Shown: positions 2,003 through 21,542 of the stretch, piece after piece | How positions within the stretch are numbered: the first letter of the stretch is position 1 | Layout: every line of letters begins with the position of its first letter | DNA from: a virus | Taxonomy: Duplodnaviria; Heunggongvirae; Uroviricota; Caudoviricetes | DNA: 30,375 nucleotides | IMG/VR virus record: IMGVR_UViG_3300044613_002694 | Span: 1-30,375 of that record | Strand: one strand, 5' to 3' | Made by a program: the position numbers and the translations under genes | The notes under the pieces: generated by a model | Seen by the model: only the letters and a program-made list of their open reading frames with translations | Database searches by the model: none | Told to the model about the DNA's origin: nothing

Positions 2003-2031
2003 AACCCGGGTTTTACACCGGGTTTTGTATT
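2003..2031 (+). terminator. Probable intrinsic terminator after the HNH gene
   Basis: AACCCGG (2003-2009), loop GTTTTACA, CCGGGTT (2018-2024), then TTGTATT. Confidence 0.65.
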
Positions 2032-2058
2032 GACTGTGATAGTGAGATGTGGTAGTAT
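2030..2058 (+). promoter_or_regulatory. Array promoter TTGACT-N17-TAGTAT with TG extension
   Basis: TTGACT 2030-2035, TAGTAT 2053-2058, 25 nt before the first array ATG. Confidence 0.7.
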
Positions 2059-2069
2059 TGTGTTTTGGT

Positions 2070-2087
2070 ATATTGAGGTGATCATGA
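2070..2087 (+). promoter_or_regulatory. Non-coding leader copy of the array junction motif, serving as SD of unit 1
   Basis: ATATTGAGGTGATCATGA, 17/18 identical to junction ATATTGAGGTGGTCATGA; GAGGTGATC complements the 16S rRNA 3' end. Confidence 0.85.
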
Positions 2088-2266
2088 AGCGAGTAAAATT
2101 TAGTGCATCTACCTTCCGTAAATTCATGAATGAGACACAGGAGTTGAATTGGGTTGAGTCGTTTGAGTTACATGGGTTTAAGACGTATCGGTATGATTGT
2201 ACTAGTTATCCCAGGCATAGTTTGAGTGAAGAAGAGTATACCTGGTTTATATTGAGGTGGTCATGA
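2084..2266 (+). CDS. Array unit 1, class A
   Basis: Start after leader SD; ends WFILRWS. Confidence 0.85.
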   Translation: MKRVKFSASTFRKFMNETQELNWVESFELHGFKTYRYDCTSYPRHSLSEEEYTWFILRWS

Positions 2267-2487
2267 CATTTTGTATATTGTATGATGATTTACCTACATC
2301 AATAAAAAGCAATCTTGAGGAGCATTGTGGTTGGACTGCTGGTATTGATCCATCGATAGGTGACTTGTTATGTCAGCAAGTTGAGCGTAATGAGTTATTA
2401 AAATTTCATGCGACTATTTCTAACCATGATGTTATCGAATTTGAAAATGAAGCGTATTATACGTTATTTGTATTGAGGTGGTCATGA
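2263..2487 (+). CDS. Array unit 2, class D
   Basis: ATGA overlap; ends LFVLRWS. Confidence 0.85.
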   Translation: MTFCILYDDLPTSIKSNLEEHCGWTAGIDPSIGDLLCQQVERNELLKFHATISNHDVIEFENEAYYTLFVLRWS

Positions 2488-2672
2488 AGTATTTTAATTT
2501 ACTGGAGTTTCCGAAGTTTCTTGAAGAATATGAAAGTGACAGTGGTACTTGGTATGATAGTTTAAAAAGGGCTGGATATAGTTCAGTTGATCAGCATGGG
2601 CCGTTTGGACGTGAAAATTCGTATTCTATGAGTGATGAGCATTGGACTTGGTTTATATTGAGGTTTTTATGA
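2484..2672 (+). CDS. Array unit 3, class A
   Basis: ATGA overlap; ends WFILRFL. Confidence 0.85.
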   Translation: MKYFNLLEFPKFLEEYESDSGTWYDSLKRAGYSSVDQHGPFGRENSYSMSDEHWTWFILRFL

Positions 2673-2851
2673 TTTTTAATTTAATGGGGTTTCCGAAATT
2701 TCGTAGGTTTGCTGCTGGTGATGGGTATGATACATGGGAAGCTAGTTTACGTAATAATGGATTTCCATCTGCCAGGGTGCATGATTATAATGATTTAATA
2801 TATGAGATGGATGATATTGAGTATACTTGGTTTGTATTGAGGTGGTCATGA
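2669..2851 (+). CDS. Array unit 4, class A
   Basis: ATGA overlap; ends WFVLRWS. Confidence 0.85.
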   Translation: MIFNLMGFPKFRRFAAGDGYDTWEASLRNNGFPSARVHDYNDLIYEMDDIEYTWFVLRWS

Positions 2852-3036
2852 ATAGGGTATATTTTAATATTAAAGATTTTCCCAATTTTAGAAAAGAAGC
2901 ACTAAACTATTCAGGTACGCTCGATGATACGATGAGAAGAATGGGGTTTAAATCTGCAAAATTCAGACTTCAAGGTCCTAATGCATGGGGTTTAAGTGAA
3001 GAAGAATATACCTGGTTTGTGTTGAGGTTTTCATGA
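2848..3036 (+). CDS. Array unit 5, class A (5' half identical to unit 18)
   Basis: ATGA overlap; ends WFVLRFS. Confidence 0.85.
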   Translation: MNRVYFNIKDFPNFRKEALNYSGTLDDTMRRMGFKSAKFRLQGPNAWGLSEEEYTWFVLRFS

Positions 3037-3242
3037 AGCAGTTTCATATATCTGACTACCCAAATTTTTACTATTATGCAAAACGTATTGCTAAAGATGA
3101 ACTGGAGAGAACCGGTAAAAGACCCTTATATAGTGAGATAATGATACGTGAAGGATATAGATCTGCGATTATGGCTGAACCTGGGCAAGGTTGGTGTATG
3201 GATGATGTGGATTTTACTTGGTTTATATTGAGGTGGTCATGA
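3033..3242 (+). CDS. Array unit 6, class A
   Basis: ATGA overlap; ends WFILRWS. Confidence 0.85.
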   Translation: MKQFHISDYPNFYYYAKRIAKDELERTGKRPLYSEIMIREGYRSAIMAEPGQGWCMDDVDFTWFILRWS

Positions 3243-3448
3243 ATGTACTTACACTTACGTTATATAGGGAATCACGAGTGGGTCTTAACATTGTTAAGTT
3301 ATATATGGCATCTAGTTATTATAATTGGCCTGAGTTTATTAAAACACTTGATGATAATATAGTTGATGTTTTTGTTGCTCCCTTTTACACTGATATTACA
3401 TTTGAGAGTGAAGCACATAAGACTTGGTTCTTAATGAGGTATGCATGA
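3239..3448 (+). CDS. Array unit 7, class B
   Basis: ATGA overlap; ends WFLMRYA. Confidence 0.85.
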   Translation: MNVLTLTLYRESRVGLNIVKLYMASSYYNWPEFIKTLDDNIVDVFVAPFYTDITFESEAHKTWFLMRYA

Positions 3449-3693
3449 GTCAAAAATTAGGATGGAAAAAGAAATACCCGTTTAAAGCTACTATAAAAAG
3501 TGATAGTGTAGAAGCGTCAGCATGGTTAAGATCACAGTTTGGGCATGATTATTTAACACTATCGTCCGGTAGAAGGCTAGTACTCAATAGAAAAGACCGG
3601 GTATGGGCGTTTGAGAAATGGGAGTATACTGGTTCTACCTATGGATTTGGTAATGAAGAACATAAGACTTGGTTTTTATTGAGGTGGTCATGA
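3445..3693 (+). CDS. Array unit 8, class C-like
   Basis: ATGA overlap; ends WFLLRWS. Confidence 0.85.
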   Translation: MSQKLGWKKKYPFKATIKSDSVEASAWLRSQFGHDYLTLSSGRRLVLNRKDRVWAFEKWEYTGSTYGFGNEEHKTWFLLRWS

Positions 3694-3917
3694 GTCAATT
3701 AAAGGTAGTCACTTTCTCATCTATGGATCGTAATATCTATGCGGAATGGGAGTTATCAGAGAAATTTTATGGGTACGACATTTCTTGGACTGGGTATATA
3801 GAATCATTACCGCATGTTAAAGATGCAAAGTTTGTTTATGGGGATGGTGATTCATATACCTTGATCACATTTGATAGTGAAGAACATAAGACTTGGTTTA
3901 TATTGAGGTATTCATGA
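3690..3917 (+). CDS. Array unit 9, class B
   Basis: ATGA overlap; ends WFILRYS. Confidence 0.85.
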   Translation: MSQLKVVTFSSMDRNIYAEWELSEKFYGYDISWTGYIESLPHVKDAKFVYGDGDSYTLITFDSEEHKTWFILRYS

Positions 3918-4183
3918 AGAATATATTTACAGGCAATTGGCCTATTACATCAGATGGTTATTACATGGATCTTCCAGAAGGATGGGCTGGGGTATATACG
4001 GTTAAACAACTCAACTTACTTGGATTTGTTGCAGATTTGGAAGGTTATGCCGAGGTAGTAGACTGGATTCATAAAAACATCAAAAATGTTGATCGTAATG
4101 TATGGAGTAAGGGTTTTGGCAGTGCTCAATTTGCATTTAGAAAGAAATCGGATTATACTTGGTTTATATTGAGGTATTCATGA
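3914..4183 (+). CDS. Array unit 10, class C-like
   Basis: ATGA overlap; ends WFILRYS. Confidence 0.85.
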   Translation: MKNIFTGNWPITSDGYYMDLPEGWAGVYTVKQLNLLGFVADLEGYAEVVDWIHKNIKNVDRNVWSKGFGSAQFAFRKKSDYTWFILRYS

Positions 4184-4386
4184 TACAACTAAAAGTAAAA
4201 ATAAATTCAAGCATGGATCATAAATTACGTGAAGAATTCAACAACGTAGTTTGGGAAGACCTTATTATTGGGTATTATGGAATTATTGATGCCGAATATA
4301 TTCAATCAGGTAGTGAAACCGGTTGTACTACTATTGTATTTAAATCAGACGAATCTAAAACTTTTTTCTTAATAAAATACTCATGA
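4180..4386 (+). CDS. Array unit 11, class B
   Basis: ATGA overlap; ends FFLIKYS. Confidence 0.85.
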   Translation: MIQLKVKINSSMDHKLREEFNNVVWEDLIIGYYGIIDAEYIQSGSETGCTTIVFKSDESKTFFLIKYS

Positions 4387-4586
4387 TATATTATGTAGAT
4401 ATATTGCATACAACCACTTGGACAATTCAAGCGAGTGGTAGAGTTATGTTAACCTATGAAACTTCTGAATGGTTGAAAAAGAATTGTAAGGGTAGTTTCA
4501 TGTTAACCTGGGAAAACTGGCCATTTTATCGATTGGCGTTTAGTAATGAAGAAGATCGTAATTGGTTTGTATTGAGGTGGTCATGA
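4383..4586 (+). CDS. Array unit 12, class C
   Basis: ATGA overlap; ends WFVLRWS. Confidence 0.85.
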   Translation: MIYYVDILHTTTWTIQASGRVMLTYETSEWLKKNCKGSFMLTWENWPFYRLAFSNEEDRNWFVLRWS

Positions 4587-4777
4587 AAACAATTAAGATA
4601 AATGATTTTCCAAAATACACAACCGAGTTTCACAATGATGGATACGATACATGGGAAGATAGTATTAGGGCTAATGGATATAAAAGTGTAAAAGTTAATG
4701 CTGTCCATCCTTTTTTTGGCACGGTGTTAGATTTATCAGATGAAGATTATACTTGGTTCTTATTGAGGTGGTCATGA
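4583..4777 (+). CDS. Array unit 13, class A
   Basis: ATGA overlap; ends WFLLRWS. Confidence 0.85.
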   Translation: MKTIKINDFPKYTTEFHNDGYDTWEDSIRANGYKSVKVNAVHPFFGTVLDLSDEDYTWFLLRWS

Positions 4778-4989
4778 TAACCATCAAACCTTCACTGATG
4801 GATGAATGGTGGGTTAATTTTACCATGTCGTTATACGAGCAGGGATGGCTTGGAATGAGCTTTGAAAAACAATTGGTGGTACGCGAATCAGAATTAAATC
4901 GATACCATGTCACGTATGATATACATCAATATACCTTGACATTTGAGTCAGAAGCCTATTATAATTGGTTTATTTTGAGGTGGTCATGA
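4774..4989 (+). CDS. Array unit 14, class E body with D-type tail
   Basis: ATGA overlap; WWVNF motif; ends WFILRWS. Confidence 0.85.
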   Translation: MITIKPSLMDEWWVNFTMSLYEQGWLGMSFEKQLVVRESELNRYHVTYDIHQYTLTFESEAYYNWFILRWS

Positions 4990-5213
4990 GTTGTATGTTA
5001 CATATACCCTATGGTTCTGTTATGGACTATAAGTTAGAAGAGCAATGGTATATACCTGATTGTGCTGATGATATTCAATGGTCTAATTATTTATTATCGA
5101 TTAGTAAGGGTATAATTGATGTTCGTGCTGCAACAGTTAATGGGGTCAATGGTACTATAGTTAAATTCAACACAGAAGAACATAAGACTTGGTTTGTATT
5201 GAGGTGGTCATGA
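4986..5213 (+). CDS. Array unit 15, class B
   Basis: ATGA overlap; ends WFVLRWS. Confidence 0.85.
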   Translation: MSCMLHIPYGSVMDYKLEEQWYIPDCADDIQWSNYLLSISKGIIDVRAATVNGVNGTIVKFNTEEHKTWFVLRWS

Positions 5214-5404
5214 GTTGTATATTGGAGATACCAGTGATATCAACTTTAGAAGACAATATAGCCAAATATTATGGTACAATAGAGTGGCTGGATATAGCAA
5301 GGCATGAAGTTGGGATATCCAGTGTTTCATATAACAGATTTATTACCTACGTTGAGTTTGCAACTGAAGCACATAAGACTTGGTTTTTATTGAGGTGGTC
5401 ATGA
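5210..5404 (+). CDS. Array unit 16, class B
   Basis: ATGA overlap; ends WFLLRWS. Confidence 0.85.
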   Translation: MSCILEIPVISTLEDNIAKYYGTIEWLDIARHEVGISSVSYNRFITYVEFATEAHKTWFLLRWS

Positions 5405-5604
5405 GTCAATTAACGATAAAGAATAAATCTGCTTTGGAGAGAAAGTTATATGATGAATGGCGGAATAGTCCAGCTATAACATGGGTAGCCTTTATTAAGT
5501 CACTTGACAAGAATATTATTAGTGTTCGGTATGCTAATCCATACACTGATATTTGGTTTGATGATGATGCACGTAAGAATTGGTTTATATTGAGGTGGTC
5601 ATGA
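5401..5604 (+). CDS. Array unit 17, class B (close paralog of unit 24)
   Basis: ATGA overlap; ends WFILRWS. Confidence 0.85.
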   Translation: MSQLTIKNKSALERKLYDEWRNSPAITWVAFIKSLDKNIISVRYANPYTDIWFDDDARKNWFILRWS

Positions 5605-5792
5605 ATAGGGTATATTTTAATATTAAAGATTTTCCCAATTTTAGAAAAGAAGCACTAAACTATTCAGGTACGCTCGATGATACGATGAGAAGAATGGGTT
5701 ATAAAACTGCAACATTCAAAGCCAATGGTACTGTGAATGCATGGGGGTTGAGCGAAGAAGAATATACTTGGTTTGTATTGAGGTGGTCATGA
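5601..5792 (+). CDS. Array unit 18, class A
   Basis: ATGA overlap; ends WFVLRWS. Confidence 0.85.
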   Translation: MNRVYFNIKDFPNFRKEALNYSGTLDDTMRRMGYKTATFKANGTVNAWGLSEEEYTWFVLRWS

Positions 5793-6046
5793 TTAGATTA
5801 AGCATTTATAAACCAAGCATTATTGGTGCAACTGCTTGGGACAGTTGTACGAATGAATGGAAGACCATGGTGAGAGAACTGATGTCCAGGTATTCAGATT
5901 GGCCAGATCGTGATGATACCTGGTATCTAATTAATCAGGAATTACAGAAATATCATGGGAGTTTAGATAGGCTTGATAATGAGGTCAAAGAAATTATATT
6001 TGATAGTGCTGAAGGTAAGACTTGGTTTTTATTGAGGTATTCATGA
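5789..6046 (+). CDS. Array unit 19, class E-like
   Basis: ATGA overlap; ends WFLLRYS. Confidence 0.85.
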   Translation: MIRLSIYKPSIIGATAWDSCTNEWKTMVRELMSRYSDWPDRDDTWYLINQELQKYHGSLDRLDNEVKEIIFDSAEGKTWFLLRYS

Positions 6047-6249
6047 GTGAGTTATATTTAAAAGAGGGTACTGCGTTAGATCATAAACTGACTCGGCTAT
6101 TTTTTAGTAGTCAAACACGTGCTTGGTATAAGTTTGTTAAATCGCTTGATGAGAACATTATTGATGTCAGTGGTTTAACGGGTAGTATTACAAGAATCAC
6201 ATTTAACAGTGAAGCACATAAGACTTGGTTTATATTGAGGTATTCATGA
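6043..6249 (+). CDS. Array unit 20, class B
   Basis: ATGA overlap; ends WFILRYS. Confidence 0.85.
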   Translation: MSELYLKEGTALDHKLTRLFFSSQTRAWYKFVKSLDENIIDVSGLTGSITRITFNSEAHKTWFILRYS

Positions 6250-6461
6250 GTGTATTGTATATGGGTAATAATTTACCATTATATAAGAAACTGTCTGATT
6301 TATATTTGGCATCTAGTATTGTTGGGTGGTATAGTTTTATCAAATCGCTTGATGACAATATAGTTAGTGTTGACCGTGTTAAATTGGGTGGTGTTGAAGT
6401 TATGCAGATTGAATTTGATAATGAAGCACATAAGACTTGGTTTTTATTAAAATATTCATGA
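6246..6461 (+). CDS. Array unit 21, class B
   Basis: ATGA overlap; ends WFLLKYS. Confidence 0.85.
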   Translation: MSVLYMGNNLPLYKKLSDLYLASSIVGWYSFIKSLDDNIVSVDRVKLGGVEVMQIEFDNEAHKTWFLLKYS

Positions 6462-6691
6462 GTGAGTTAATTATAATGTCTAGTTCAACGATAGATGTTA
6501 ATCTTGAATCTGGGTGGGCTAGTGAATTTTATCAGATTGATGATTGGTTGGATTATTTGAAATCATTACCCACGGTCATTGATGCAACCTGGCATGAGCG
6601 TGAATGGAATGGTGGTGATAATCCATCATATACTTTGATCACATTTGAAAGTGAAGCACATAAGAATTGGTTTGTATTGAGGTGGTCATGA
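6458..6691 (+). CDS. Array unit 22, class B
   Basis: ATGA overlap; ends WFVLRWS. Confidence 0.85.
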   Translation: MSELIIMSSSTIDVNLESGWASEFYQIDDWLDYLKSLPTVIDATWHEREWNGGDNPSYTLITFESEAHKNWFVLRWS

Positions 6692-6909
6692 GTCAAGTAA
6701 AAGTACTTTTTAACTCAGCAATGGATTAAAATCTTGAAGAGTATGTACGTAGTGGCGTGAATAATGATTGGGAAGAAGTTATAAAATCATTACCCTATGT
6801 TAAAGATGCGAAATGGATTACTATTGGTTCGTCGATAGGTGGGTCCTATACTTTAATTACATTTGAAAATGAAGCACATAAGAATTGGTTTATAATGAGG
6901 TGGTCATGA
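6688..6909 (+). pseudogene. Array unit 23, class B, in-frame TAA at 6727-6729
   Basis: MSQVKVLFNSAMD*NLEEY...ITFENEAHKNWFIMRWS in one frame; could be an assembly error. Confidence 0.85.
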
Positions 6910-7109
6910 GTCAATTAACGATAAAGAATAATTCTACAATAGAGTGGAAGTTATACGATGCATGGAGAAATGCTGGAGTTTCATCATGGGAAATATTTAT
7001 TAAGTCACTTGACAAGAATATTATCAGGGTTCGTTACGATACCCCATATACAAATGTTTGGTTCAAGGATGACGCACACACAACTTGGTTTATTTTGAGG
7101 TGGTCATGA
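6906..7109 (+). CDS. Array unit 24, class B
   Basis: ATGA overlap; ends WFILRWS. Confidence 0.85.
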   Translation: MSQLTIKNNSTIEWKLYDAWRNAGVSSWEIFIKSLDKNIIRVRYDTPYTNVWFKDDAHTTWFILRWS

Positions 7110-7327
7110 GTGAATTAAAAGTACCCTCACCATCTACTATGGATAGTAATATCGAAGCGGAATGGGAATCATCAGAATCATATGGGTTCGATACTTGGAC
7201 AAGGTATATAGAATCATTACCTCACGTTAAATCAGCAAGGCTTGTTTTTAGAGCTGGTGATAATCATACCTTGATCACATTTGAAAATGAAGCGCATAAG
7301 AATTGGTTTATATTGAGGTATTCATGA
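7106..7327 (+). CDS. Array unit 25, class B
   Basis: ATGA overlap; ends WFILRYS. Confidence 0.85.
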   Translation: MSELKVPSPSTMDSNIEAEWESSESYGFDTWTRYIESLPHVKSARLVFRAGDNHTLITFENEAHKNWFILRYS

Positions 7328-7551
7328 TTTTTGATCCCCATACTATTAAGCTGACTGGTACTTTATATGATAATTGCATCTATGAAAATAGATTGTCAGA
7401 TGAAGTATGGGAGTGGTTATTTGACCATTGTAGTGGCCCTAATACTGATCGTTTTTATTATTATACTGGATACACGCCTGGAAGGGATACCCATTATATT
7501 CGGTTTGATTATAGGGAACATAGTAATTGGTTCTTATTGAGATGGAGTTAA
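7324..7551 (+). CDS. Array unit 26, class C
   Basis: ATGA overlap; ends WFLLRWS. Confidence 0.85.
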   Translation: MIFDPHTIKLTGTLYDNCIYENRLSDEVWEWLFDHCSGPNTDRFYYYTGYTPGRDTHYIRFDYREHSNWFLLRWS

Positions 7552-7552
7552 G

Positions 7553-7633
7553 ATGTCAATAAAAATTAATGAGTGTTCTATTGAATTCGACAATGAATCC
7601 TGTTATAATTGGGTTTTAGTGAGGTGGTCTTGA
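7553..7633 (+). CDS. Array unit 27, 26-aa mini-unit MSIKINECSIEFDNESCYNWVLVRWS
   Basis: Hand translation; N-terminus joined directly to the tail motif. Confidence 0.7.
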   Translation: MSIKINECSIEFDNESCYNWVLVRWS

Positions 7634-7848
7634 TTGATTTTATTTTATATGATGGTAGCCCACTTGATGTAAAATTAATGGCTATGTGGGAGGATGACCA
7701 CTACTCTGACCGGCTAAATTATGAAATTTTTGTTGGCTCATTAGATCCGCACATTGTCAATGCAAAAGCAGATGAAAATTATGCGTCAATTACCCTAACA
7801 TTTGAAAACGAAAAATATTTAACCTGGTTTATATTAAAATGGTCATAG
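7630..7848 (+). CDS. Array unit 28, class B-like, TTG start
   Basis: TTGA overlap after GAGG; ends WFILKWS. Confidence 0.8.
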   Translation: MIDFILYDGSPLDVKLMAMWEDDHYSDRLNYEIFVGSLDPHIVNAKADENYASITLTFENEKYLTWFILKWS

Positions 7849-8051
7849 AAAAAGAACAGTATCCGTATTCGATTAATACTTCCTGTATTAGACGTGCATT
7901 TAGGCAAGACATATGGGAGTGGTGCAATCATGTGTTCGGCCCTTATCAAGGTAATGATAAATGGTCATGGGGTGATGATATAGTTAAGTTTAGCACAATC
8001 CATTGTGCCGAGTTTTTTGCATGGAGGTGGTATGGATACGACGTGGACTGA
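7839..8051 (+). CDS. Array unit 29, class C, degenerate tail
   Basis: ATG from AAA-TGG of unit 28; ends FFAWRWYGYDVD. Confidence 0.75.
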   Translation: MVIEKEQYPYSINTSCIRRAFRQDIWEWCNHVFGPYQGNDKWSWGDDIVKFSTIHCAEFFAWRWYGYDVD

Positions 8052-8238
8052 GTTAACACGCACGATGTATCGGGAAATGGCACGTGACGCTCGTAGACAA
8101 GGTTACATTTTCAATAGTGATTTCATCCGCGCAGAAAATATTGGGGATTATTATCCACGAATTCGGAATTACGAATTTGGTGCGATTAAATTTAGAACCC
8201 CAGAATTAAAAACGTTTTATTTATTGAGGTGGTCATGA
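8032..8238 (+). CDS. Array unit 30, unclassified
   Basis: GGAGGTGG SD; ends FYLLRWS. Confidence 0.8.
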   Translation: MDTTWTELTRTMYREMARDARRQGYIFNSDFIRAENIGDYYPRIRNYEFGAIKFRTPELKTFYLLRWS

Positions 8239-8447
8239 AACAGGTTAAGATAGGGTTTGAGAATTTTTATTTAGAGGGTTTACTATTTAAACTTACCCCA
8301 GCAGTTACGAATTGGCTTATTGCACATAAAGTGGAAGATTACCGGGTAAGACATGAACATTTATATGATAGACCTGCTCTGGAAATAGAGTTCGGCGATA
8401 ATGTACCAGATGAAATAATCAATTGGTTTATTTTGAGATGGTTATGA
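8235..8447 (+). CDS. Array unit 31, class C-like
   Basis: ATGA overlap; ends WFILRWL. Confidence 0.85.
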   Translation: MKQVKIGFENFYLEGLLFKLTPAVTNWLIAHKVEDYRVRHEHLYDRPALEIEFGDNVPDEIINWFILRWL

Positions 8448-8644
8448 AAACATTTAATATTAGCGATTTTCCTCGATTTTTAGATGAGTGGATTTTATAC
8501 CCAGATTTTTCTAGTTATCACCACGCTGCTGCTGATTATTATATGAGACAGGTTGGATTCAAATCAGCAAGGTTTGTTAATATTGAGGTTGGTTGGGGCT
8601 TGAGTGATGAAGAATATACATGGTTTTTAATAAGGTATTCATGA
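8444..8644 (+). CDS. Array unit 32, class A
   Basis: ATGA overlap; ends WFLIRYS. Confidence 0.85.
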   Translation: MKTFNISDFPRFLDEWILYPDFSSYHHAAADYYMRQVGFKSARFVNIEVGWGLSDEEYTWFLIRYS

Positions 8645-8838
8645 AAAACATTGACATCTATAAATTTAAAAAATTCATTGCTGCATGGCAATCTGAGCCT
8701 TATTCTCGGTTAAAGGGTGATGAATGTATGCGACGAATGGGTTTTAAATCGGCAATGTATGTAATTTTTTCAAAAGATAATAAATCATGGCAATTAAGTG
8801 AAGAAGAATATACTTGGTTTGTCTTGAGGTGGTCATGA
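8641..8838 (+). CDS. Array unit 33, class A
   Basis: ATGA overlap; ends WFVLRWS. Confidence 0.85.
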   Translation: MKNIDIYKFKKFIAAWQSEPYSRLKGDECMRRMGFKSAMYVIFSKDNKSWQLSEEEYTWFVLRWS

Positions 8839-9035
8839 AGTCGATCTCATTAGAGTCAGCACCGTGTTTAGCCATGCGTGAATATTACTCGTTGAATGTA
8901 TGGGAGCCTGGGTGTACTATAATTTATTTAGATTGGGTGTTTAATGAATATCGTGCAACATTTGATAAAGAAAATTGGACATATGTATTTGAACATGATG
9001 AAGAATATACTTGGTTTTTATTGAGGTGGTCATGA
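8835..9035 (+). CDS. Array unit 34, unclassified
   Basis: ATGA overlap; ends WFLLRWS. Confidence 0.85.
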   Translation: MKSISLESAPCLAMREYYSLNVWEPGCTIIYLDWVFNEYRATFDKENWTYVFEHDEEYTWFLLRWS

Positions 9036-9295
9036 GTGAGTTATATTTAAAAGAGGGTACTGCGTTATATCATAAACTGACTCGGCTATTTTTTAGTAGT
9101 CAAACTTATACCTGGTATAAGGATGAATGGGAATTATCAGAATTTTATGAATTCAGTCATTGGACAAGGTATATAGAATCATTACCTCACGTTAAATCTG
9201 CACAGTTTGTTGCTAGTAAACCTGGTAAAGAATATACCTTGATCACATTTGATAGTGAAGAACATAAGACTTGGTTTATATTGAGGTATTCATGA
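9032..9295 (+). CDS. Array unit 35, class B chimera of unit 20-, 25- and 9-like segments
   Basis: ATGA overlap; ends WFILRYS. Confidence 0.85.
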   Translation: MSELYLKEGTALYHKLTRLFFSSQTYTWYKDEWELSEFYEFSHWTRYIESLPHVKSAQFVASKPGKEYTLITFDSEEHKTWFILRYS

Positions 9296-9477
9296 AAATA
9301 CTCGATTTATATTATTTTCCAAAATACAAAACAGAATTTATAAACGATGGATACAGTACATGGGAAGCTAGTGTTAGGGCTAATGGATTTAAAAGTGCAG
9401 TTACTTGTTCAGCGTTTGGTGAAAGATTATGGATATCAGATGAAGAGTATACTTGGTTCTTATTGAGGTGGTCATGA
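9292..9477 (+). CDS. Array unit 36, class A
   Basis: ATGA overlap; ends WFLLRWS. Confidence 0.85.
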   Translation: MKILDLYYFPKYKTEFINDGYSTWEASVRANGFKSAVTCSAFGERLWISDEEYTWFLLRWS

Positions 9478-9683
9478 CTATAAAAATTGATTCGAAGATA
9501 GTCCCAAAGGTTGTTTTAAAAAATTTACACGATCAATGTAGCCATATGGTTGGCACAGGCAAATATTGGGCAACGATAAATGATGAGTTGAATAAATTTG
9601 GTGCGAAATATGATCATTCTAAATCATGTTTTCATTTTAACGATGAAGCTATGTATCATTGGTTCTTATTGAGGTGGTCATAA
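9474..9683 (+). CDS. Array unit 37, class D
   Basis: ATGA overlap; ends WFLLRWS. Confidence 0.85.
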   Translation: MTIKIDSKIVPKVVLKNLHDQCSHMVGTGKYWATINDELNKFGAKYDHSKSCFHFNDEAMYHWFLLRWS

Positions 9684-9928
9684 TGCATCGATTAGAAATA
9701 CCAGGATGTATCTTCGAATCTACCCCAATCTGGTGGCAAAACTTTATCCATGATTGCCGATTAAAATACCCAAATGATTTTGGAAGTGATTTTCGGCGGG
9801 TAACTACTAAAATTCTTAAAGAAGAGTATCATGCATCAAAGATTTATGATAGACGTATTAATGATATAGAAGCCTTGGCATTTGACAAAGAAGAATATAA
9901 GACTTGGTTTGTATTGAGGTGGTCATGA
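9683..9928 (+). CDS. Array unit 38, class E
   Basis: TAATG overlap; PIWWQNF; ends WFVLRWS. Confidence 0.85.
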   Translation: MHRLEIPGCIFESTPIWWQNFIHDCRLKYPNDFGSDFRRVTTKILKEEYHASKIYDRRINDIEALAFDKEEYKTWFVLRWS

Positions 9929-10146
9929 GTTTTACAATTAATTATAAGATGTTACCTAAAAATGTAAAAAAAAATTTTGAAGATTTTTGCTTGTGGGAAC
10001 ATAAACAACTCGATTATGAGATGTGTATACGAAACGAAGCAGTTGAACTTGCCAAATTTAATGCAATACACGATAAATCTAACAATGATTTGTTTGTTTT
10101 TGAAAACGAAGCCTGTTATAATTGGTTTGTATTGAGGTGGTCATGA
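9925..10146 (+). CDS. Array unit 39, class D
   Basis: ATGA overlap; ends WFVLRWS. Confidence 0.85.
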   Translation: MSFTINYKMLPKNVKKNFEDFCLWEHKQLDYEMCIRNEAVELAKFNAIHDKSNNDLFVFENEACYNWFVLRWS

Positions 10147-10337
10147 GTTTTACTATTGAATGGCCATCTATACCATACGATGTTCGACGGAAATTTTGTG
10201 CTGCATATCCTGTTCCTATTAATATGAATATTTTTAAAGCAGAATTAGCAAAGTTTCATTGTGAGTATACCAGTGATAATCTAGCCATTTTTGAAAGCGA
10301 AGCACATTATAATTGGTTTTTGTTGAGATGGAGTTAG
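10143..10337 (+). CDS. Array unit 40, class D
   Basis: ATGA overlap; ends WFLLRWS. Confidence 0.85.
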   Translation: MSFTIEWPSIPYDVRRKFCAAYPVPINMNIFKAELAKFHCEYTSDNLAIFESEAHYNWFLLRWS

Positions 10338-10338
10338 T

Positions 10339-10521
10339 ATGATATTTGATGTGACAGATTTTCCTAAATTTGTGAGTTATGCTGGAGGAAACTTTCCCAA
10401 TTCGGTGCTAATGTCTGATAGTCTAATAGCTGCCGGGTATAAATCAACCAAGTTTAGATCTTATGGTTCTTGGTATATGGATGATGAAGAATACACTTGG
10501 TTTGTATTGAGGTGGTCATGA
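10339..10521 (+). CDS. Array unit 41, class A
   Basis: 1-nt gap; ends WFVLRWS. Confidence 0.85.
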   Translation: MIFDVTDFPKFVSYAGGNFPNSVLMSDSLIAAGYKSTKFRSYGSWYMDDEEYTWFVLRWS

Positions 10522-10715
10522 GTTTTACTATCGATTGGATAGAAATACCGTTCAACCCTCGAAAAAACTTTTGTGACAAATATGTTCATCCCTATGACGA
10601 TCTCAGTGTTTTTAGAGCAGAATTGGCAAAGTTTCATTGTGAGTATACCAGTGATAATCTAGCCATTTTTGAAAGCGAAGCACATTACACTTGGTTTGTA
10701 TTGAGGTGGTCATGA
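10518..10715 (+). CDS. Array unit 42, class D (62 nt identical to unit 40)
   Basis: ATGA overlap; ends WFVLRWS. Confidence 0.85.
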   Translation: MSFTIDWIEIPFNPRKNFCDKYVHPYDDLSVFRAELAKFHCEYTSDNLAIFESEAHYTWFVLRWS

Positions 10716-10930
10716 TACAATTAAGAATACCTTCACCATCTAATATAGATGAAAATCTTGAAGCAGAATGGGAAGCAGAAGATATTAATATAGATGAATG
10801 GTTACGTTATTTGAAATCATTAACTTATGTTAAGGATGCAGAATGGATTGATAGGTTGCTGAATCCCTATACACTTATTACATTTGAAAGTGAAGCACAT
10901 AAGAACTGGTTTATTTTGAGGTGGTCATGA
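10712..10930 (+). CDS. Array unit 43, class B
   Basis: ATGA overlap; ends WFILRWS. Confidence 0.85.
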   Translation: MIQLRIPSPSNIDENLEAEWEAEDINIDEWLRYLKSLTYVKDAEWIDRLLNPYTLITFESEAHKNWFILRWS

Positions 10931-11367
10931 ACCGGAGTTTACGTATTATTAATAAAGGATTTAAAGCAGAAATCACAAACCGGGATAACGAATATAAGTT
11001 TATGGATCAGGTTAGGTGGTGCTACGAACATAAAAGTAAGATAAGGTTCTTATGGTTTTTTGAACGTGATGCTAAATTTGAATGTATGAGTTTAGTTAAT
11101 ACCAATACGTTTTATTTTGAAAAAGAATCAGATCGTAATTGGTTTCTAATTAGGTGGTCATGCATGATACATTTAAAAGTATTCACTTTCTCAGCCATGG
11201 ATGATAATCTCTCCAAGGAATGGGATCGTTTAGATTCGTGGATACCGTGGATACAATATATAAAATCATTACCACATGTTATAGAGGCGGAATGGAACAC
11301 TACCTATACACGTATTACATTTAAAAATGAAGCACATAAGAATTGGTTTGTATTGAGGTGGTCATGA
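10927..11367 (+). CDS. Array unit 44, in-frame fusion of a class C and a class B unit
   Basis: Internal WFLIRWS-C-MIHL; CATGCATG at 11159-11166; ends WFVLRWS. Confidence 0.85.
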   Translation: MNRSLRIINKGFKAEITNRDNEYKFMDQVRWCYEHKSKIRFLWFFERDAKFECMSLVNTNTFYFEKESDRNWFLIRWSCMIHLKVFTFSAMDDNLSKEWDRLDSWIPWIQYIKSLPHVIEAEWNTTYTRITFKNEAHKNWFVLRWS

Positions 11368-11558
11368 AAACGATTAAGATAACTAATTTCCCAAAATATA
11401 AAAAAGAGTGTCAAAATGATGAATATGATACCTGGGAAGAAAGTGTTAGAGCTAATGGATATAAAAGTGCAATTGCTGATCCTAACGATAATTATTTTGG
11501 TACTTATATACGTATGTCGGATGAAGATTACACGTGGTTCGTTTTAAAATGGTCATGA
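11364..11558 (+). CDS. Array unit 45, class A
   Basis: ATGA overlap; ends WFVLKWS. Confidence 0.85.
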   Translation: MKTIKITNFPKYKKECQNDEYDTWEESVRANGYKSAIADPNDNYFGTYIRMSDEDYTWFVLKWS

Positions 11559-11758
11559 CGTATTCAGTAAGATTCTTTGACATACCATATCGTGTCAGGT
11601 ATAATTACATCAAAGAATACAAACTTGTTGAGACAGTCGAGGGTTATGAAGAATTGATGAGCAAGTATCGATTTAAAAGAGTTATGCGTGATCACCTGTT
11701 GTATTACGAGTTTGAATCCGAAAAATATTACACTTGGTTTTTATTAAGATTTTCATGA
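11555..11758 (+). CDS. Array unit 46, class D-like
   Basis: ATGA overlap; ends WFLLRFS. Confidence 0.85.
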   Translation: MTYSVRFFDIPYRVRYNYIKEYKLVETVEGYEELMSKYRFKRVMRDHLLYYEFESEKYYTWFLLRFS

Positions 11759-12012
11759 ATACAGAAATAGAATTAACATCTTTTTTAGAAGATTGTCCAG
11801 CAGTTTGGCGTAAATTCAGTCAGATTGAAATAGAGTCTACCGATATTTACGAATTACCAGTAGCTGATGCAATAACCAGATTAAATGAGTTATTAAAAAA
11901 ATATCATGCTGAATATACCCATGCATACAGTGTAAATGGAAATGTTTGTCGTCGATATTTAAAATTCGAAAGTGAAGCGCATAAGAATTGGTTTATTATC
12001 AAATGGTCATAA
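11755..12012 (+). CDS. Array unit 47, class E-like
   Basis: ATGA overlap; ends WFIIKWS. Confidence 0.85.
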   Translation: MNTEIELTSFLEDCPAVWRKFSQIEIESTDIYELPVADAITRLNELLKKYHAEYTHAYSVNGNVCRRYLKFESEAHKNWFIIKWS

Positions 12013-12230
12013 TTCATTTCAGTAAAAAAAATTATAATCAGCTAAATGCATGTGAACCATGGTGGTTTAATTTTGTTGATTATTACTCAGATATAATAGA
12101 ACCATGGTATGGCTTTGATTCAATCAATCAGATATTGAAAGAATATGATGCGGTGGTTAATCCCTCCAACAACACTGTTATTTTTAATGATGATGCAAAA
12201 GCTACTTGGTTTCTATTAAAATGGGCTTAA
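12003..12230 (+). CDS. Array unit 48, class E
   Basis: ATG from AAA-TGG; PWWFNF; ends WFLLKWA. Confidence 0.8.
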   Translation: MVIIHFSKKNYNQLNACEPWWFNFVDYYSDIIEPWYGFDSINQILKEYDAVVNPSNNTVIFNDDAKATWFLLKWA

Positions 12231-12448
12231 TCAATCATATTACTCAAACTAGATTTGAAGCAAACGGCGAGGTATTCTATTACCATGTCGTTCATATTTC
12301 TAGTATCATGAATGCCGAAATTTGTGAATGGTGTTTGTCAAACTTTGATCGTAGTAATGATCTTGATAGATGGTTTACCGATCATTGGGGTAAGTATTTT
12401 TTTAGACATGAAGATGATAAGAATTGGTTTGTATTGAGGTGGTCATGA
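12221..12448 (+). CDS. Array unit 49, class C
   Basis: ATG from AAA-TGG; ends WFVLRWS. Confidence 0.8.
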   Translation: MGLINHITQTRFEANGEVFYYHVVHISSIMNAEICEWCLSNFDRSNDLDRWFTDHWGKYFFRHEDDKNWFVLRWS

Positions 12449-12702
12449 AAATACTACATTTAAGAGTTGGTTCTATAGCAGATCAAGCTGGTTGGTGGGT
12501 TAATTTCATAAAGGATTGTGATGAACGAGGTGGTTGGGATACGTATTCCCGAGATTCCGAACGGGTTGATTTCATCATAAATGAAGTCCGCAAGGCAGGT
12601 GCTGAACCAATTTTAAGAAGCTCGAACGTTCCAGGATCAATCATTGGTATGACTTTCGAAAATGAAGCTAAAGCCAATTGGTTCTTATTGAGGTGGTCAT
12701 GA
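12445..12702 (+). CDS. Array unit 50, class E
   Basis: ATGA overlap; WWVNF; ends WFLLRWS. Confidence 0.85.
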   Translation: MKILHLRVGSIADQAGWWVNFIKDCDERGGWDTYSRDSERVDFIINEVRKAGAEPILRSSNVPGSIIGMTFENEAKANWFLLRWS

Positions 12703-12884
12703 GAATAATCAACATATTAGATTTTGAAAAGTTCACCGATTATTATTCGGAGAAATGGCAATTTAATACCTGGGATGAATGTTTACGAGATACCGGTATT
12801 AAACAAATTGCTTGGATTGATGATACCTTTCAGATAGAGATCACTGATGCAGAATACACCTGGTTTGTGTTGAGGTGGGCATAA
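12699..12884 (+). CDS. Array unit 51, class A
   Basis: ATGA overlap; ends WFVLRWA. Confidence 0.85.
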   Translation: MRIINILDFEKFTDYYSEKWQFNTWDECLRDTGIKQIAWIDDTFQIEITDAEYTWFVLRWA

Positions 12885-13090
12885 TGAAATCATACACTGA
12901 TACCGACATTTATGTTGTAGAAATAGAGGAAAATGATGAGCAGTATATAGAGGACTACCTTGATTGGTGTGAAGAGACATTTGAAGAAGATAAATGGATT
13001 ATTGCTGCTAGTGAATTGTTGTTCGAAAATACTAGGATTCTGTTTATGACAGAACAAGATCGTAATTGGTTTATGATGAGGTGGGGATGA
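12884..13090 (+). CDS. Array unit 52, class C
   Basis: TAATG overlap; ends WFMMRWG. Confidence 0.85.
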   Translation: MKSYTDTDIYVVEIEENDEQYIEDYLDWCEETFEEDKWIIAASELLFENTRILFMTEQDRNWFMMRWG

Positions 13091-13329
13091 AAAAAGTATT
13101 TTTCACGACTGAGGTTGCATTAAAGTTTTACACCGTACAAATCAAAGAAGATATTGGCTGGAATTCATTTATTGATGCCAAAGAGGAATGGTGCGATAAT
13201 CATAAAAGTAAGGTCAAATTCTTTTGGTTTTTTGAACGTGATGCACGATATGTTTACAGTTATTATTATTCAACCTGGTATTTTGAAAAAGAAGTTGACC
13301 GTAATTGGTTTATGATGAGGTGGGGATGA
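13087..13329 (+). CDS. Array unit 53, class C
   Basis: ATGA overlap; ends WFMMRWG. Confidence 0.85.
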   Translation: MKKVFFTTEVALKFYTVQIKEDIGWNSFIDAKEEWCDNHKSKVKFFWFFERDARYVYSYYYSTWYFEKEVDRNWFMMRWG

Positions 13330-13571
13330 TCGTTTGTGATGTAACTCTTAAAAACAATAGCCCATTCGATATTAGTGCATGGTGTGGAAAACAATTTGGT
13401 CCAGGTGGATACTCGTACACCCCATCAGACAACTATCGATGGACTATGTACATTTATACCGGTAGTGGTATCAAAAGACACCCAGCCCGAATTAGATTAT
13501 CATTTTTAAATGATCAAGATTATAACTGGTTTTGCTTGAGGTTCGAATGTCAAACAACGAAGATAAGTTAA
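13326..13571 (+). CDS. Array unit 54, class C, extended tail
   Basis: ATGA overlap; ends WFCLRFECQTTKIS. Confidence 0.85.
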   Translation: MIVCDVTLKNNSPFDISAWCGKQFGPGGYSYTPSDNYRWTMYIYTGSGIKRHPARIRLSFLNDQDYNWFCLRFECQTTKIS

Positions 13572-13762
13572 TACTTAAACCCTATCGTATCACTGCGTCT
13601 AATGTACCAAACTCAATAAGAAACAAATTAGGGTATGATACGGCAAGTTGGCGAGATGTAATTGAAGAATGCCATGGTATTATATACAGGACTACGTTTG
13701 ATTATGTTCTTGAATTTGAAAGTCTTGCCCAGTATAATTGGTTCTTAATAAGGTATAGTTAA
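13547..13762 (+). CDS. Array unit 55, class D-like
   Basis: GAGG SD in unit 54 tail; ends WFLIRYS. Confidence 0.8.
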   Translation: MSNNEDKLILKPYRITASNVPNSIRNKLGYDTASWRDVIEECHGIIYRTTFDYVLEFESLAQYNWFLIRYS

Positions 13763-14013
13763 TGATCTCTGCGGAAGGTAGATTAGAGGGTCTTAAAGCA
13801 CGTTATTATATTGCATCCCTACCCATGTCTAATGACTTGTTAGAACAATACAATTGGTGTGTTGGCCATAATAGTTGCGTTAAGTCATGGTGGTTTTTTA
13901 CAAGGCCAGCTCGATTTTTCTGGGACCCTACTAGATTTAATAATACGTTTTATTTTGAAAAAGAATCAGATCGCAATTGGTTTATAATGAGGTGGGGCTA
14001 TGACAGAAACTGA
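13762..14013 (+). CDS. Array unit 56, class C
   Basis: TAATG overlap; ends WFIMRWGYDRN. Confidence 0.85.
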   Translation: MISAEGRLEGLKARYYIASLPMSNDLLEQYNWCVGHNSCVKSWWFFTRPARFFWDPTRFNNTFYFEKESDRNWFIMRWGYDRN

Positions 14014-14257
14014 TGGGTTGTTTTATTACGCACCCTATAATCCATTTGGGGTACCCTACAAAACCACCAGAAAGCTTACCGACGTAGATGGTATATGGTA
14101 TACTGTAATTACTATGAAACATGAAGTGGACGATTGGATAGTTGAACTACCTATGGGTAGTTGGCGTTACTCTGCCAATAGAAGAATGGTAGACCTGTTC
14201 AGTGGGTTCGATTTACGTGAAGATGTCTACCAGTGGTTTTTATTGAGGTGGTCATGA
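14000..14257 (+). CDS. Array unit 57, related to unit 67
   Basis: GAGG SD in unit 56 tail; ends WFLLRWS. Confidence 0.85.
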   Translation: MTETDGLFYYAPYNPFGVPYKTTRKLTDVDGIWYTVITMKHEVDDWIVELPMGSWRYSANRRMVDLFSGFDLREDVYQWFLLRWS

Positions 14258-14460
14258 CGTTTGTAATAAGTGAGCACAATTTACCCATTAACTATAGACG
14301 GTTTAACGACCATTGTAACAAGAATGAAAACGGTACAAGATATTGGGTTAACGTTCGTCAAGAACTAGAAAAATTCAAAGCAACCTATAATAACATAACA
14401 AATCAACTTGTGTTTGAATCAGAAGCCCATTATAATTGGTTTGTATTGAGGTGGTCATGA
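14254..14460 (+). CDS. Array unit 58, class D
   Basis: ATGA overlap; ends WFVLRWS. Confidence 0.85.
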   Translation: MTFVISEHNLPINYRRFNDHCNKNENGTRYWVNVRQELEKFKATYNNITNQLVFESEAHYNWFVLRWS

Positions 14461-14684
14461 CATTTGAAGTTAAGTTTAAAAACATACCAGACATAACTAG
14501 AGAGAATTTTCTAACAGCATGTGGTAAATATGATGATTTTGTATCCAAGTATGATTTCGACACAAGACGAAATCATGAATTAGCGAAGTGTAAAGGTAAC
14601 CGGGTTAGTAATGGTCTAGGTGAACTGGTATACGAATTTGAAAGTGAAGCCCATTATAATTGGTTTGTAGTGAGGTGGTCATGA
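14457..14684 (+). CDS. Array unit 59, class D
   Basis: ATGA overlap; ends WFVVRWS. Confidence 0.85.
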   Translation: MTFEVKFKNIPDITRENFLTACGKYDDFVSKYDFDTRRNHELAKCKGNRVSNGLGELVYEFESEAHYNWFVVRWS

Positions 14685-14905
14685 CTTTTGAAATTTATTT
14701 TGAAAACATACCACAAATTGTTAAAACGAATTTCCTTATAGATTGTGATAATTATCACCAGAGTGGTGTAAATCACATTAACGAAACAATTAATAAAGAA
14801 TTAGCGAAGTTCAAGGGTAAACGGTTTAAGAATTGCCATGACAAGCTGGTATACGAATTTGAAAGTGAAGCCCATTATAATTGGTTTGTATTGAGGTATT
14901 CGTAA
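14681..14905 (+). CDS. Array unit 60, class D
   Basis: ATGA overlap; ends WFVLRYS. Confidence 0.85.
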   Translation: MTFEIYFENIPQIVKTNFLIDCDNYHQSGVNHINETINKELAKFKGKRFKNCHDKLVYEFESEAHYNWFVLRYS

Positions 14906-15129
14906 TGTATAAAGTAACCATCCCATTTGATCCAGAATGGCCTGATGAAAACTGTAAGGTACTATTGGCAAAAGAATGGTGTCACCAAACGTTTGGTAGC
15001 CGTCGATGCCCAATTACGTTAAAGTATCGTTGGATGACTAGATATACGTGGACCGGTAATAGATATATAATATATTTCTTTTTTGAAAAAGAAGAACATG
15101 CAACGTAGTTCAAATTACAATGGGCATGA
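14905..15129 (+). pseudogene. Array unit 61, class C, motif Trp codon replaced by TAG at 15106-15108
   Basis: ...EKEEHAT*FKLQWA* in frame; only the tail motif is lost. Confidence 0.75.
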
Positions 15130-15368
15130 AATTTAAGACATTTGATAGTAGGGCTGATCTCGATCACCCATATGGTGTATGTTTAGAAGTGTTTGGCGAT
15201 ACTTATGAGATAACCTTTACCAAAATAGAAATTGATAATTGGTGCCTAGAACAGTTTGGTCCCGATGGGGATAAATGGGCAGGGGTAATGTATGTTGGTG
15301 AAAACTACATAAGGGTATATTTCAAATCTATTGATGATCGTAATTGGTTTTTATTGAGATGGACATGA
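15126..15368 (+). CDS. Array unit 62, class C
   Basis: ATGA overlap with the relic stop of unit 61; ends WFLLRWT. Confidence 0.85.
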   Translation: MKFKTFDSRADLDHPYGVCLEVFGDTYEITFTKIEIDNWCLEQFGPDGDKWAGVMYVGENYIRVYFKSIDDRNWFLLRWT

Positions 15369-15577
15369 TATCAATTAATATAACACATAAACAATGGAAC
15401 AAATTAGCATTCTATCGTGATGAGTCCGATTCTAGTATTGTGAATATGCGTTCATCACGAGAAATGAAACAATATATCAAAGATACCTATCATGGAAATT
15501 ATGATCAACTAAAAGGTTTTGGAACCATCACATTTGAACATGAACATCTTCTAACTTGGTTTTTATTAAATGTATGA
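15365..15577 (+). CDS. Array unit 63, unclassified
   Basis: ATGA overlap; ends WFLLNV. Confidence 0.85.
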   Translation: MISINITHKQWNKLAFYRDESDSSIVNMRSSREMKQYIKDTYHGNYDQLKGFGTITFEHEHLLTWFLLNV

Positions 15578-15794
15578 AATACAAATTAACACACGATAAT
15601 TGGAAAGATCTTGATAGCAAGTTTGACGCAAAAGCTGGCAGGTCGCTCGTTAGAAGTGATCGGATATGTTATGGAAGGAATCGATTATGCAGGAGTATAA
15701 ATTAGATTATGAAGAAGATTACACGAATAGTCGAGACCATGGCACTGTTTCCGGTGAAGCACATCGTATAACTTGGTTTCTATTAAACATATGA
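15574..15794 (+). pseudogene. Array unit 64, frameshifted relative of unit 63
   Basis: MKYKLTHDNWKDL... in one frame and DMLWKES...GEAHRITWFLLNI in another; the shift lies after ~15657. Confidence 0.75.
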
Positions 15795-16039
15795 TATTAC
15801 ATTTGGTAGACGGCGGGTTTTTAACACAACCCTCATGGTGGCAGAATTTCATAAACGATATCGATGATAGATTTCCAGATGCATTTCACTACTACGAAGA
15901 TGAAGAACGTGAACAGTTAATTAAAGTTGAATTTGCAAAGGTTGGTGCTATTCTTATAGATGATGAGTATGACGGTATACTGGGAGTTGAATTCCATGAT
16001 GATGCAAAAGCTACTTGGTTTATAATGAGGTGGTCATAA
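15791..16039 (+). CDS. Array unit 65, class E
   Basis: ATGA overlap; PSWWQNF; ends WFIMRWS. Confidence 0.85.
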   Translation: MILHLVDGGFLTQPSWWQNFINDIDDRFPDAFHYYEDEEREQLIKVEFAKVGAILIDDEYDGILGVEFHDDAKATWFIMRWS

Positions 16040-16240
16040 TTGAATAATATATTAAAAATACCATTGTTTTCAAAAATGGAAGATAATATATCAGCATTTT
16101 ATGGGACCAATCGCTGGATGAGTTCTGCATTGCTGGAAACTGGGATAGTCTCATGTCGGTTTACATCTGAGTCGTGTGAAACCATAATTACATTTGAAAC
16201 CGACGCTCATAAGAATTGGTTTATAATAAGGTGGTCATGA
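16040..16240 (+). CDS. Array unit 66, class B, TTG start
   Basis: Abuts previous TAA; ends WFIIRWS. Confidence 0.8.
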   Translation: MNNILKIPLFSKMEDNISAFYGTNRWMSSALLETGIVSCRFTSESCETIITFETDAHKNWFIIRWS

Positions 16241-16461
16241 GTTTACCTAGAAATGGTGCATATGAGCTATTCATCAATAATGGTTTTGTATATTGTTTTG
16301 AATTATCATCAAACCCATTATTACTGGAGTCCGACGAATTACACAATTGGATTAGACAACAACCCAAAGAATTATGGCATGGTATGAATCCACCATATCA
16401 CAAAACGGCATATTATTTAAAACCTGAACTATATAATTGGTTCAAATTGAGGTGGTCATGA
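16237..16461 (+). CDS. Array unit 67, related to unit 57
   Basis: ATGA overlap; ends WFKLRWS. Confidence 0.85.
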   Translation: MSLPRNGAYELFINNGFVYCFELSSNPLLLESDELHNWIRQQPKELWHGMNPPYHKTAYYLKPELYNWFKLRWS

Positions 16462-18499: not shown

Positions 18500-18501
18500 C
18501 T

Positions 18502-20962: not shown

Positions 20963-20987
20963 CATTGAATTTGTTTTAAAGTATAAT
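20959..20987 (+). promoter_or_regulatory. Perfect-consensus sigma70 promoter TTGACA-N17-TATAAT
   Basis: TTGACA 20959-20964, TATAAT 20982-20987. Confidence 0.85.
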
Positions 20988-20993
20988 AACATC

Positions 20994-21480: not shown

Positions 21481-21542
21481 TACCTAATACCTTTGACAAA
21501 GATAACGAAAAACGTTAAATAGTAATATTACGGAATAATATT

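Follow-up and report, generated by a model that had tools for sequence, protein, structure and literature searches.

The window analyzed here, by which we mean the whole stretch of 30,375 nt, is the first part of a 94,375-nt IMG/VR virus contig from an uncultured jumbo phage. The contig has a completeness estimate of about 40%, near-identical strains are represented by contigs of 299 kb and others reaching 367 kb, and the larger proteins of the phage have remote matches only, all in jumbo phages. Much smaller genes follow one another on the plus strand of the window in a gap-free array, and nearly all of them encode proteins with the C-terminal pattern F-x-x-E-x-x-x-x-W-F-[ILV]-L-[RK]-[WYF]-S. 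The end of this pattern, W-F-x-L-[RK]-[WYF]-[S], is present in 78 of the array genes, and at 61 of these 78 the gene is closed by an ATGA overlap with its follower. We refer to each gene as a unit and to the sequence of about 24 nt at its boundary as the joint. The features on which the argument depends first are as follows.

2084 to 20962, plus strand: the small-gene array, about 85 genes head-to-tail, each of 60-90 codons.
2003 to 2087, plus strand: the array head, with a hairpin terminator (2003-2024) and a promoter-like TTGACT-17-TAGTAT (2030-2058).
2084 to 2266, plus strand: unit 1, a 60-aa family member; in its AF2 model a strand (residues 45-48) precedes a terminal helix (49-59) that is the conserved motif.
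2240 to 2266, plus strand: the end of unit 1, its last eight codons and stop (T-W-F-I-L-R-W-S-stop), ACC TGG TTT ATA TTG AGG TGG TCA TGA.
2263 to 2487, plus strand: unit 2, 74 aa, with its putative ribosome-binding site inside the tail of unit 1 and the same joint at its own end.
4936 to 4989, plus strand: a perfect promoter, TTGACA-18-TATAAT, inside unit 15, its -10 box formed by the Y-Y-N codons just before W-F.
20744 to 20962, plus strand: the last array unit, which ends TTA AAA TTT TCT TGA, with no Shine-Dalgarno (SD) sequence, no ATG and no gene behind.

Where units 1 and 2 meet, the codons TTG AGG TGG TCA TGA (2252-2266) encode L-R-W-S-stop and contain the SD-like sequence GAGGTGGTC at 2254-2262, followed by the ATG of unit 2 at 2263-2265, which overlaps the TGA stop of unit 1 at 2264-2266. 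The initial annotation of this DNA had pointed out that the L-R-W-S codons also hold a GAGGTG SD and an ATGA overlap, and both are indeed there. The arrangement recurs along the array: GAGGTGGTCATGA with at most one mismatch has 40 copies in the window, all on the plus strand, where shuffled sequences lead one to expect 0.06.

A motif scan of the 94-kb contig detected 103 members of the family, of which 10 lie on the minus strand. The array and one member gave no match in a phage collection (megablast, tblastn), four family members had no match in Pfam, and nothing was found in the window with Rfam. The minus-strand members, at about 66.8-76.6 kb of the contig, represent a second, looser joint style elsewhere in the genome: the basic position of the motif is encoded by AAA in five, AGA in three, AAG in one, CGG in one and AGG in none, six of the ten end in ...W-G (TGG GGN), and half have extra tail residues.

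The codons at the joint depart sharply from the usage of the rest of the genome. Over the whole contig the motif arginine (n = 77 among the 103 members) is encoded by AGG in 63 cases, AGA in 13 and CGG in one; the 78 motif-bearing units of the window have 63 Arg (AGG 57, AGA 6, CGN 0) and 13 Lys, close to an earlier hand count of about 62 AGG, 6 AGA and 0 CGN in 68. AGG accounts for 6.2% of Arg codons in 45 long ORFs and for 12.9% in the small-gene bodies, with CGN at about 54%, and the excess at the motif has a binomial P of about 1e-42; an equal preference for AGG across the genome, against which the initial annotation had proposed to check its reading, is thus not what the counts give. The same document described the preceding Leu as mostly TTG, and this holds as well, with the preceding residue in the window being Leu-TTG in 47 units, Leu-TTA in 14 and Met-ATG in 10, and TTG making up 57/80 of the Leu codons at this position on the contig against a background of 18-20%. 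The motif Ser is TCA in 64/82 (background 32-37%), and the stop codon is TGA in 82/103 (background 8/45).

In a codon-by-codon profile of the last 17 positions, the strongest deviations fall on Leu (P 4e-40), Arg (P 2e-67) and Ser (P 5e-18), so that the constraint on synonymous sites that had been proposed from the sequence does exist and is strongest at the Leu, Arg, Ser and stop codons, as an SD plus an ATGA overlap require. Weaker synonymous skews extend further upstream, with Lys at -2 being AAG in 22/24 and Thr at -1 being ACT in 37/50, and a further 3'-end skew is seen for GAA (50/51). Part of the nucleotide identity is therefore inherited or homogenised, and codon bias alone is no proof of selection on an RNA signal. 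A tRNA search of the 94-kb contig with aragorn found none, and the use of AGG can therefore not be linked to a phage tRNA-Arg(CCU).

The relation of the favored codons to the ribosome is more specific. Against the canonical 16S tail GAUCACCUC, GAGGTGGTC forms nine pairs, one of them G.U, and the duplex with GAUCACCUCCUUA has an energy of -14.1 kcal/mol, a value that, like all SD energies given here, assumes the canonical tail, from which that of the host may differ. Replacing the G of the G.U pair by A would create TGA, a stop in the upstream frame. The median duplex energy is -14.1 kcal/mol at the 63 AGG joints, compared with -5.1 kcal/mol for 45 ordinary genes of the phage and -4.2 kcal/mol for synonymous recodings, which encode the same peptides with the phage's own codon usage. 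The ordinary genes have normal AGGA, GGAG or GAGG sites upstream of their starts, and the host therefore uses SDs. We infer that the joint SD would likewise be used by the host ribosome.

The placement of the starts is equally regular. At 55 AGG joints that have the ATGA overlap, a spacer of 5 nt lies between GAGG and the ATG, inside the range of about 4-9 nt that separates an SD core from an ATG or GTG opening a real gene, and each of these ATGs opens an ORF of at least 40 aa of the same family. Among the 103 members the first downstream ATG lies at -4 in 68, at -10 in 13 and at -1 in seven, and seven of the 13 with an ATG at -10 also have an in-frame ATGA start at -4; stop and start on the same strand thus overlap or stand a few nt apart, which is the geometry of termination-reinitiation. 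The predicted accessibility of the 12-mer from SD to ATG is no higher than the array average.

In joints that deviate from the standard form, the choice of one codon varies with that of another. The Leu codon is TTG or TTA in a ratio of 47:3 beside AGG and of 3:11, equal to background, beside Lys-AAA (P 1.5e-7). More generally, a codon ending in G precedes AGG in 57/63 joints and precedes K, N or Q in 5/26 (P 1e-10). The Ser codon AGT, which turns TGGAGT into a GGAG, is found at 0/68 ATGA joints and at 6/18 joints whose start lies at or beyond the stop (P 4e-5). In the related phage L008 (8001-12700), four joints have TCG TGA, and each thereby acquires GTGA, a GTG start overlapping the stop. 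Three joints of the window illustrate the main departures.

10323 to 10341, plus strand: a relocated SD, TTG AGA TGG AGT TAG T ATG, in which Ser is AGT and GGAG lies 5 nt before a start placed after the stop.
13986 to 14013, plus strand: an extended tail, M-R-W-G-Y-D-R-N-stop; the next start (14000) is right behind GAGGTGGGG and makes a 14-nt overlap with the upstream gene.
7828 to 7848, plus strand: an SD-less joint in the Lys state, TTA AAA TGG TCA TAG, with the next ATG (7839) across the Lys-Trp codons.

In the unit with the extended tail, the start stays behind GAGGTGGGG and its position therefore tracks the SD, not the stop. Residues beyond the motif are present in 3/63 AGG members and in 14/40 others (P 9e-5), and the SD therefore also sets the protein end. 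About 20 joints, or about a quarter, are in the Lys state; they have no SD (median -3.3 kcal/mol) and keep overlapping starts, which are either ATGA or an ATG across AAA TGG 10 nt upstream in the same frame. The start at 7839 is of the second kind, being 10 nt before the end of the stop and in the frame that an ATGA start would have. The SD is thus apparently dispensable at some joints, and the overlapping starts that persist there hint that reinitiation in this array can work without one.

Taken together, these patterns make it likely, in our judgment, that the last codons of each unit are dual-purpose, encoding a C-terminal helix and at the same time an extended SD and start for the next gene, with selection fixing the synonymous sites. 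As protein, the codons would complete the amphipathic helix W-F-x-L-[R/K]-[W/Y/F]-[S]. As RNA, xxG AGG TGG TCA TGA would spell GAGGTGGTC, ending directly at the next ATG, so that the GAGG core would stand 5 nt before an ATG that overlaps the TGA stop. Selection for the ribosome-binding site would fix Leu as TTG, Arg as AGG, Ser as TCA and the stop as TGA; it would also choose among residues that the protein tolerates, with Arg over Lys and Met-ATG as an alternative to Leu, and it would set the end point of the protein. On completing one unit, a ribosome would therefore be positioned on the next start, and 30S subunits could also bind the joint de novo. The stop/start geometry leads us to infer that translation of the units would be coupled by termination-reinitiation.

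An SD inside the upstream gene beside an ATGA overlap is a textbook mechanism, and Eyre-Walker reportedly described in 1996 that codon use at gene ends is adapted to the SD of the next gene. In published tests, ATGA pairs were usually strictly coupled, and when the SD was removed, reinitiation fell by 60-90% or ceased in four of five E. coli pairs (Huber et al. 2019, PMC6728339). The phage joints resemble those ATGA/TGATG pairs in the 4-nt overlap, in the SD within the 3' codons of the upstream gene and in the existence of SD-less overlaps too, and the same mechanism would be expected for them; they differ in that one joint is repeated about 100 times within a family, known here from sequence alone, and in that the SD, of unusual length (9 pairs, -14 kcal/mol), lies inside a conserved structural helix. 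A skew of 3' codons and stop codons caused by the downstream ribosome-binding site has been reported as a genome-wide trend (Palleja et al. 2009, PMC2784483), whereas the effect in the phage is nearly deterministic and comes with internal controls, namely the Lys state, the AGT Ser codon and GTGA.

Comparison of strains shows that the joint has a second property. Over the array, L002-L004 match the window at 99.8-100% identity, and strain L001 shares blocks of 97-99% identity interrupted by whole-unit differences. In the comparison of the window with L001, each of the four internal block ends is no more than 2 nt from the stop of a unit (4989, 6693, 9035 and 10931; chance about 3e-7). Of the five block starts, three are located 29-38 nt ahead of a stop, within the conserved 3' motif, and insertions of a single unit (218 nt) and of a pair of units (406 nt) lie exactly in the joint. 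The joint is therefore also a site where recombination resolves. The suggestion in the initial annotation that units are plug-and-play accordingly stands at the level of the DNA, where strains differ by the gain, loss or replacement of entire units and the breakpoints coincide with the joint.

The best-surviving alternative takes these breakpoints as primary and holds that the identity of the joint is kept mainly as a cassette recombination joint, its resemblance to an SD being secondary. A short homology at every boundary would allow units to be duplicated, deleted and swapped, the L001 block ends, block starts and insertions are where this explanation places them, and the synonymous biases upstream of the SD fit homogenisation. 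We consider it unlikely all the same, since it gives no reason why the fixed bases should be precisely the nine able to pair with the 16S tail and correctly spaced from an ATG, it does not explain why the Leu codon goes back from TTG to TTA where AGG has been lost or why AGT Ser occurs solely with later starts, and the Phe codon inside the repeat has only a slight excess of TTT. The weakness applies to recombination solely as a single cause: a recombination role is compatible with that of a ribosome-binding site and may add to the nucleotide conservation. A more tentative extension of the dual-purpose reading, which we regard as possible but somewhat doubtful, is that the joint of about 24 nt is a bifunctional standard part, supplying both the ribosome-binding site for whichever unit follows and the homology for inserting, deleting and swapping units. 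The phage could then turn over about 100 small host-directed proteins without losing the expression of their neighbors, in an integrase-free, translation-level counterpart of a cassette array.

It is very unlikely that the shared codons are merely inherited, whether through recent expansion of the family or through 3'-end gene conversion, with no selection on the RNA. Common descent would account for the skews at the other 3'-end synonymous sites (the AAG, ACT and GAA codons above), but the gene bodies have a median of 42% amino-acid identity or are not alignable, and yet AGG ranks first among the Arg codons in 18 of the 26 clusters built from the bodies only (P 6e-11). Nor would inheritance be expected to produce the conditional and compensatory choices of codon, and the pattern is present in four distinct phages. 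The Lys state occurs inside at least nine body-defined clusters that also contain AGG members. In three further phage contigs, related at about 80-84% nucleotide identity over short HSPs, AGG is used at 15/18, 31/36 and 19/20 joints. Among L005, L006 and L008 there was no distant relative with other motif codons, all having 32-35% G+C and the same joint; one array-terminal unit of L006 retains GAGGTGGAG with no gene behind it.

That the codons also serve the protein is indicated by structure prediction. The AF2 models of a 75-aa member and of the 60-aa unit 1 have pLDDT values of 94.1 and 90.5, respectively, and in both the motif comprises the last strand and the terminal helix (residues 64-74 in the 75-aa protein and 49-59 in unit 1), so the motif is confidently predicted to be the terminal amphipathic helix of a compact alpha/beta fold. 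A Foldseek search of the PDB with the 75-aa model gave a best match of E 0.07. An RRM or ferredoxin-like assignment for this model was considered and rejected, as VIA-align Z reached 5.0 at most, with small alpha/beta domains tied and below the noise of the tool.

Sequence conservation adds to the structural picture. Position 5 of the motif is R or K in 100/103 members (K in 23), an aromatic residue (W, Y or F) occupies position 6 in 103/103, and joints whose SD is destroyed show conservative residue changes only (R to K; W to Y or F). The conserved block reaches F-x-x-E, 15 residues upstream of the SD, and among 481 metagenomic matches (E <= 1e-3) the motif is kept in 144/144 retrieved representatives, of which 136 end at it. 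The last residue is by comparison loosely specified (S, A, G, L or T) and nearly always has an NNA codon at ATGA joints. The initial annotation had supposed that the RNA signal might in part have given rise to the L-R-W-S peptide as a by-product; this view is not borne out, because the peptide forms a helix in a confidently predicted fold and because R/K and W/Y/F exchanges persist where the SD is lost. In its strongest form, with L-R-W-S having no protein role at all, the idea is scarcely credible, for although the loose last residue and the protein end exactly two codons past Arg, far commoner with an SD, speak for it, the basic and aromatic residues that stay where the SD is lost, the conserved block up to F-x-x-E, the helix in both models and the motif in all retrieved representatives among the matches listed speak against it. 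The idea seems to survive narrowly, in that the RNA signal picks Arg-AGG over Lys, Leu-TTG or Met-ATG, the NNA last codon and the position of the C-terminus.

Set beside known gene arrays, the dual-purpose joint has partial parallels. Arbiol, Comeau and Krisch are said to have described, in 2010, PeSL (promoter-early stem-loop) cassettes in the hyperplastic regions of T4-type phages. The phage array shares with these the small early genes of unassigned function and whole-gene swaps at short conserved boundaries, the latter seen directly in the breakpoints between the window and L001. Its boundary, in contrast, is coding sequence plus a ribosome-binding site and not an intergenic promoter with a stem-loop: the array has no intergenic spacers that could hold an early promoter and stem-loop between ORFs, and no hairpins were found at the joints, with an MFE of -6.8 for joint-centered 60-mers against -7.8 mid-gene. 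Integron gene cassettes are similar in that their exchangeable units, bounded by a repeated element, form an array next to a promoter; the phage joints, however, have no attC-like hairpin, no integrase is seen near the array, and each unit supplies the translation signals of its neighbor, so that the likeness is one of analogy only.

What is new here is the scale and the regularity, one conserved helix supplying an identical and very strong putative ribosome-binding site about 100 times, together with the natural variants that serve as controls and the fact that the same sequence marks recombination breakpoints. No new mechanism of translation is revealed. The case for dual coding is nevertheless unusually clean, in that the fold would set the basic and aromatic residues and the helix, and the RNA would set the codons, the choice of Arg over Lys and the protein end, with the Lys-state, AGT and GTGA variants as built-in controls. 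It would account for how about 100 tiny genes are kept expressed in gap-free arrays despite shuffling from strain to strain, and the joint could be a ready-made compact part for polycistronic designs.

Downstream of the promoter-like site that ends at 2058, the joint recurs as non-coding sequence (TGGTATATTGAGGTGATC), which at 2075-2083 matches the anti-SD perfectly over 9 nt; the first ATG is at 2084. Such a non-coding copy leads the first gene of arrays, and in the window and L008 it is just 3' of a promoter-like site. A candidate rule, that the leader always relaxes to the perfect GAGGTGATC, is true for the window and strain L002 and was rejected, the sequence being absent from the leaders of L005, L006 and L008.

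Perfect TTGACA-N17/18-TATAAT promoters are present on the coding strand inside or at the end of the array at 4936-4965, 11577-11605 and 20959-20987. Three compare with 0.024 expected, and the probability of three or more is 2e-6, which makes it improbable that the array is an operon with a single promoter. Promoter-like sites overall are not enriched (118 against 108 +/- 9), and only these three are perfect. The predicted start of the transcript from the promoter in unit 15 is a few nt 5' of the joint SD (4977-4985), behind which comes the ATG at 4986, and the joint would therefore serve there as a free-standing 5' leader. In RNA-library contigs from two freshwater runs of one sample, matches of 100% bridge joints at 12816-13212 and 8723-9086; such assembled contigs give presence and bridging, not strand, transcript ends or translation, and DNA carry-over is possible.

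Several minor observations concern the array and its flanks. A broken unit at 6688-6909 has an intact joint followed by a 13-codon ORF, with the remainder of the unit resuming before the joint at 6897-6909. Directly upstream of the array, a 214-aa gene (1354-1998) is shared with strain L002 and replaced by other genes in L001; its C-terminus is HNH-like by eye, and Pfam returns a sub-threshold match to a scaffold protein only. On the 3' side, 21543-26743 encodes an ART-PolyVal ADP-ribosyltransferase domain (E 6e-23) and a weaker second one, and the last 54 residues of a 1007-aa protein within this region match sigma-70 region 1.1 (E 2.5e-12). Between the array and the ADP-ribosyltransferase-like gene lie 580 nt (20963-21542) of higher G+C, with no long plus-strand ORF and no Rfam match. 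These 580 nt could encode a non-coding RNA or be a variable element. In both freshwater RNA-library runs, contig depth is higher here than anywhere else in the stretch examined; contigs have loose ends at 21020 and at 21222/21229, and 75 nt are skipped between 21222 and 21298.
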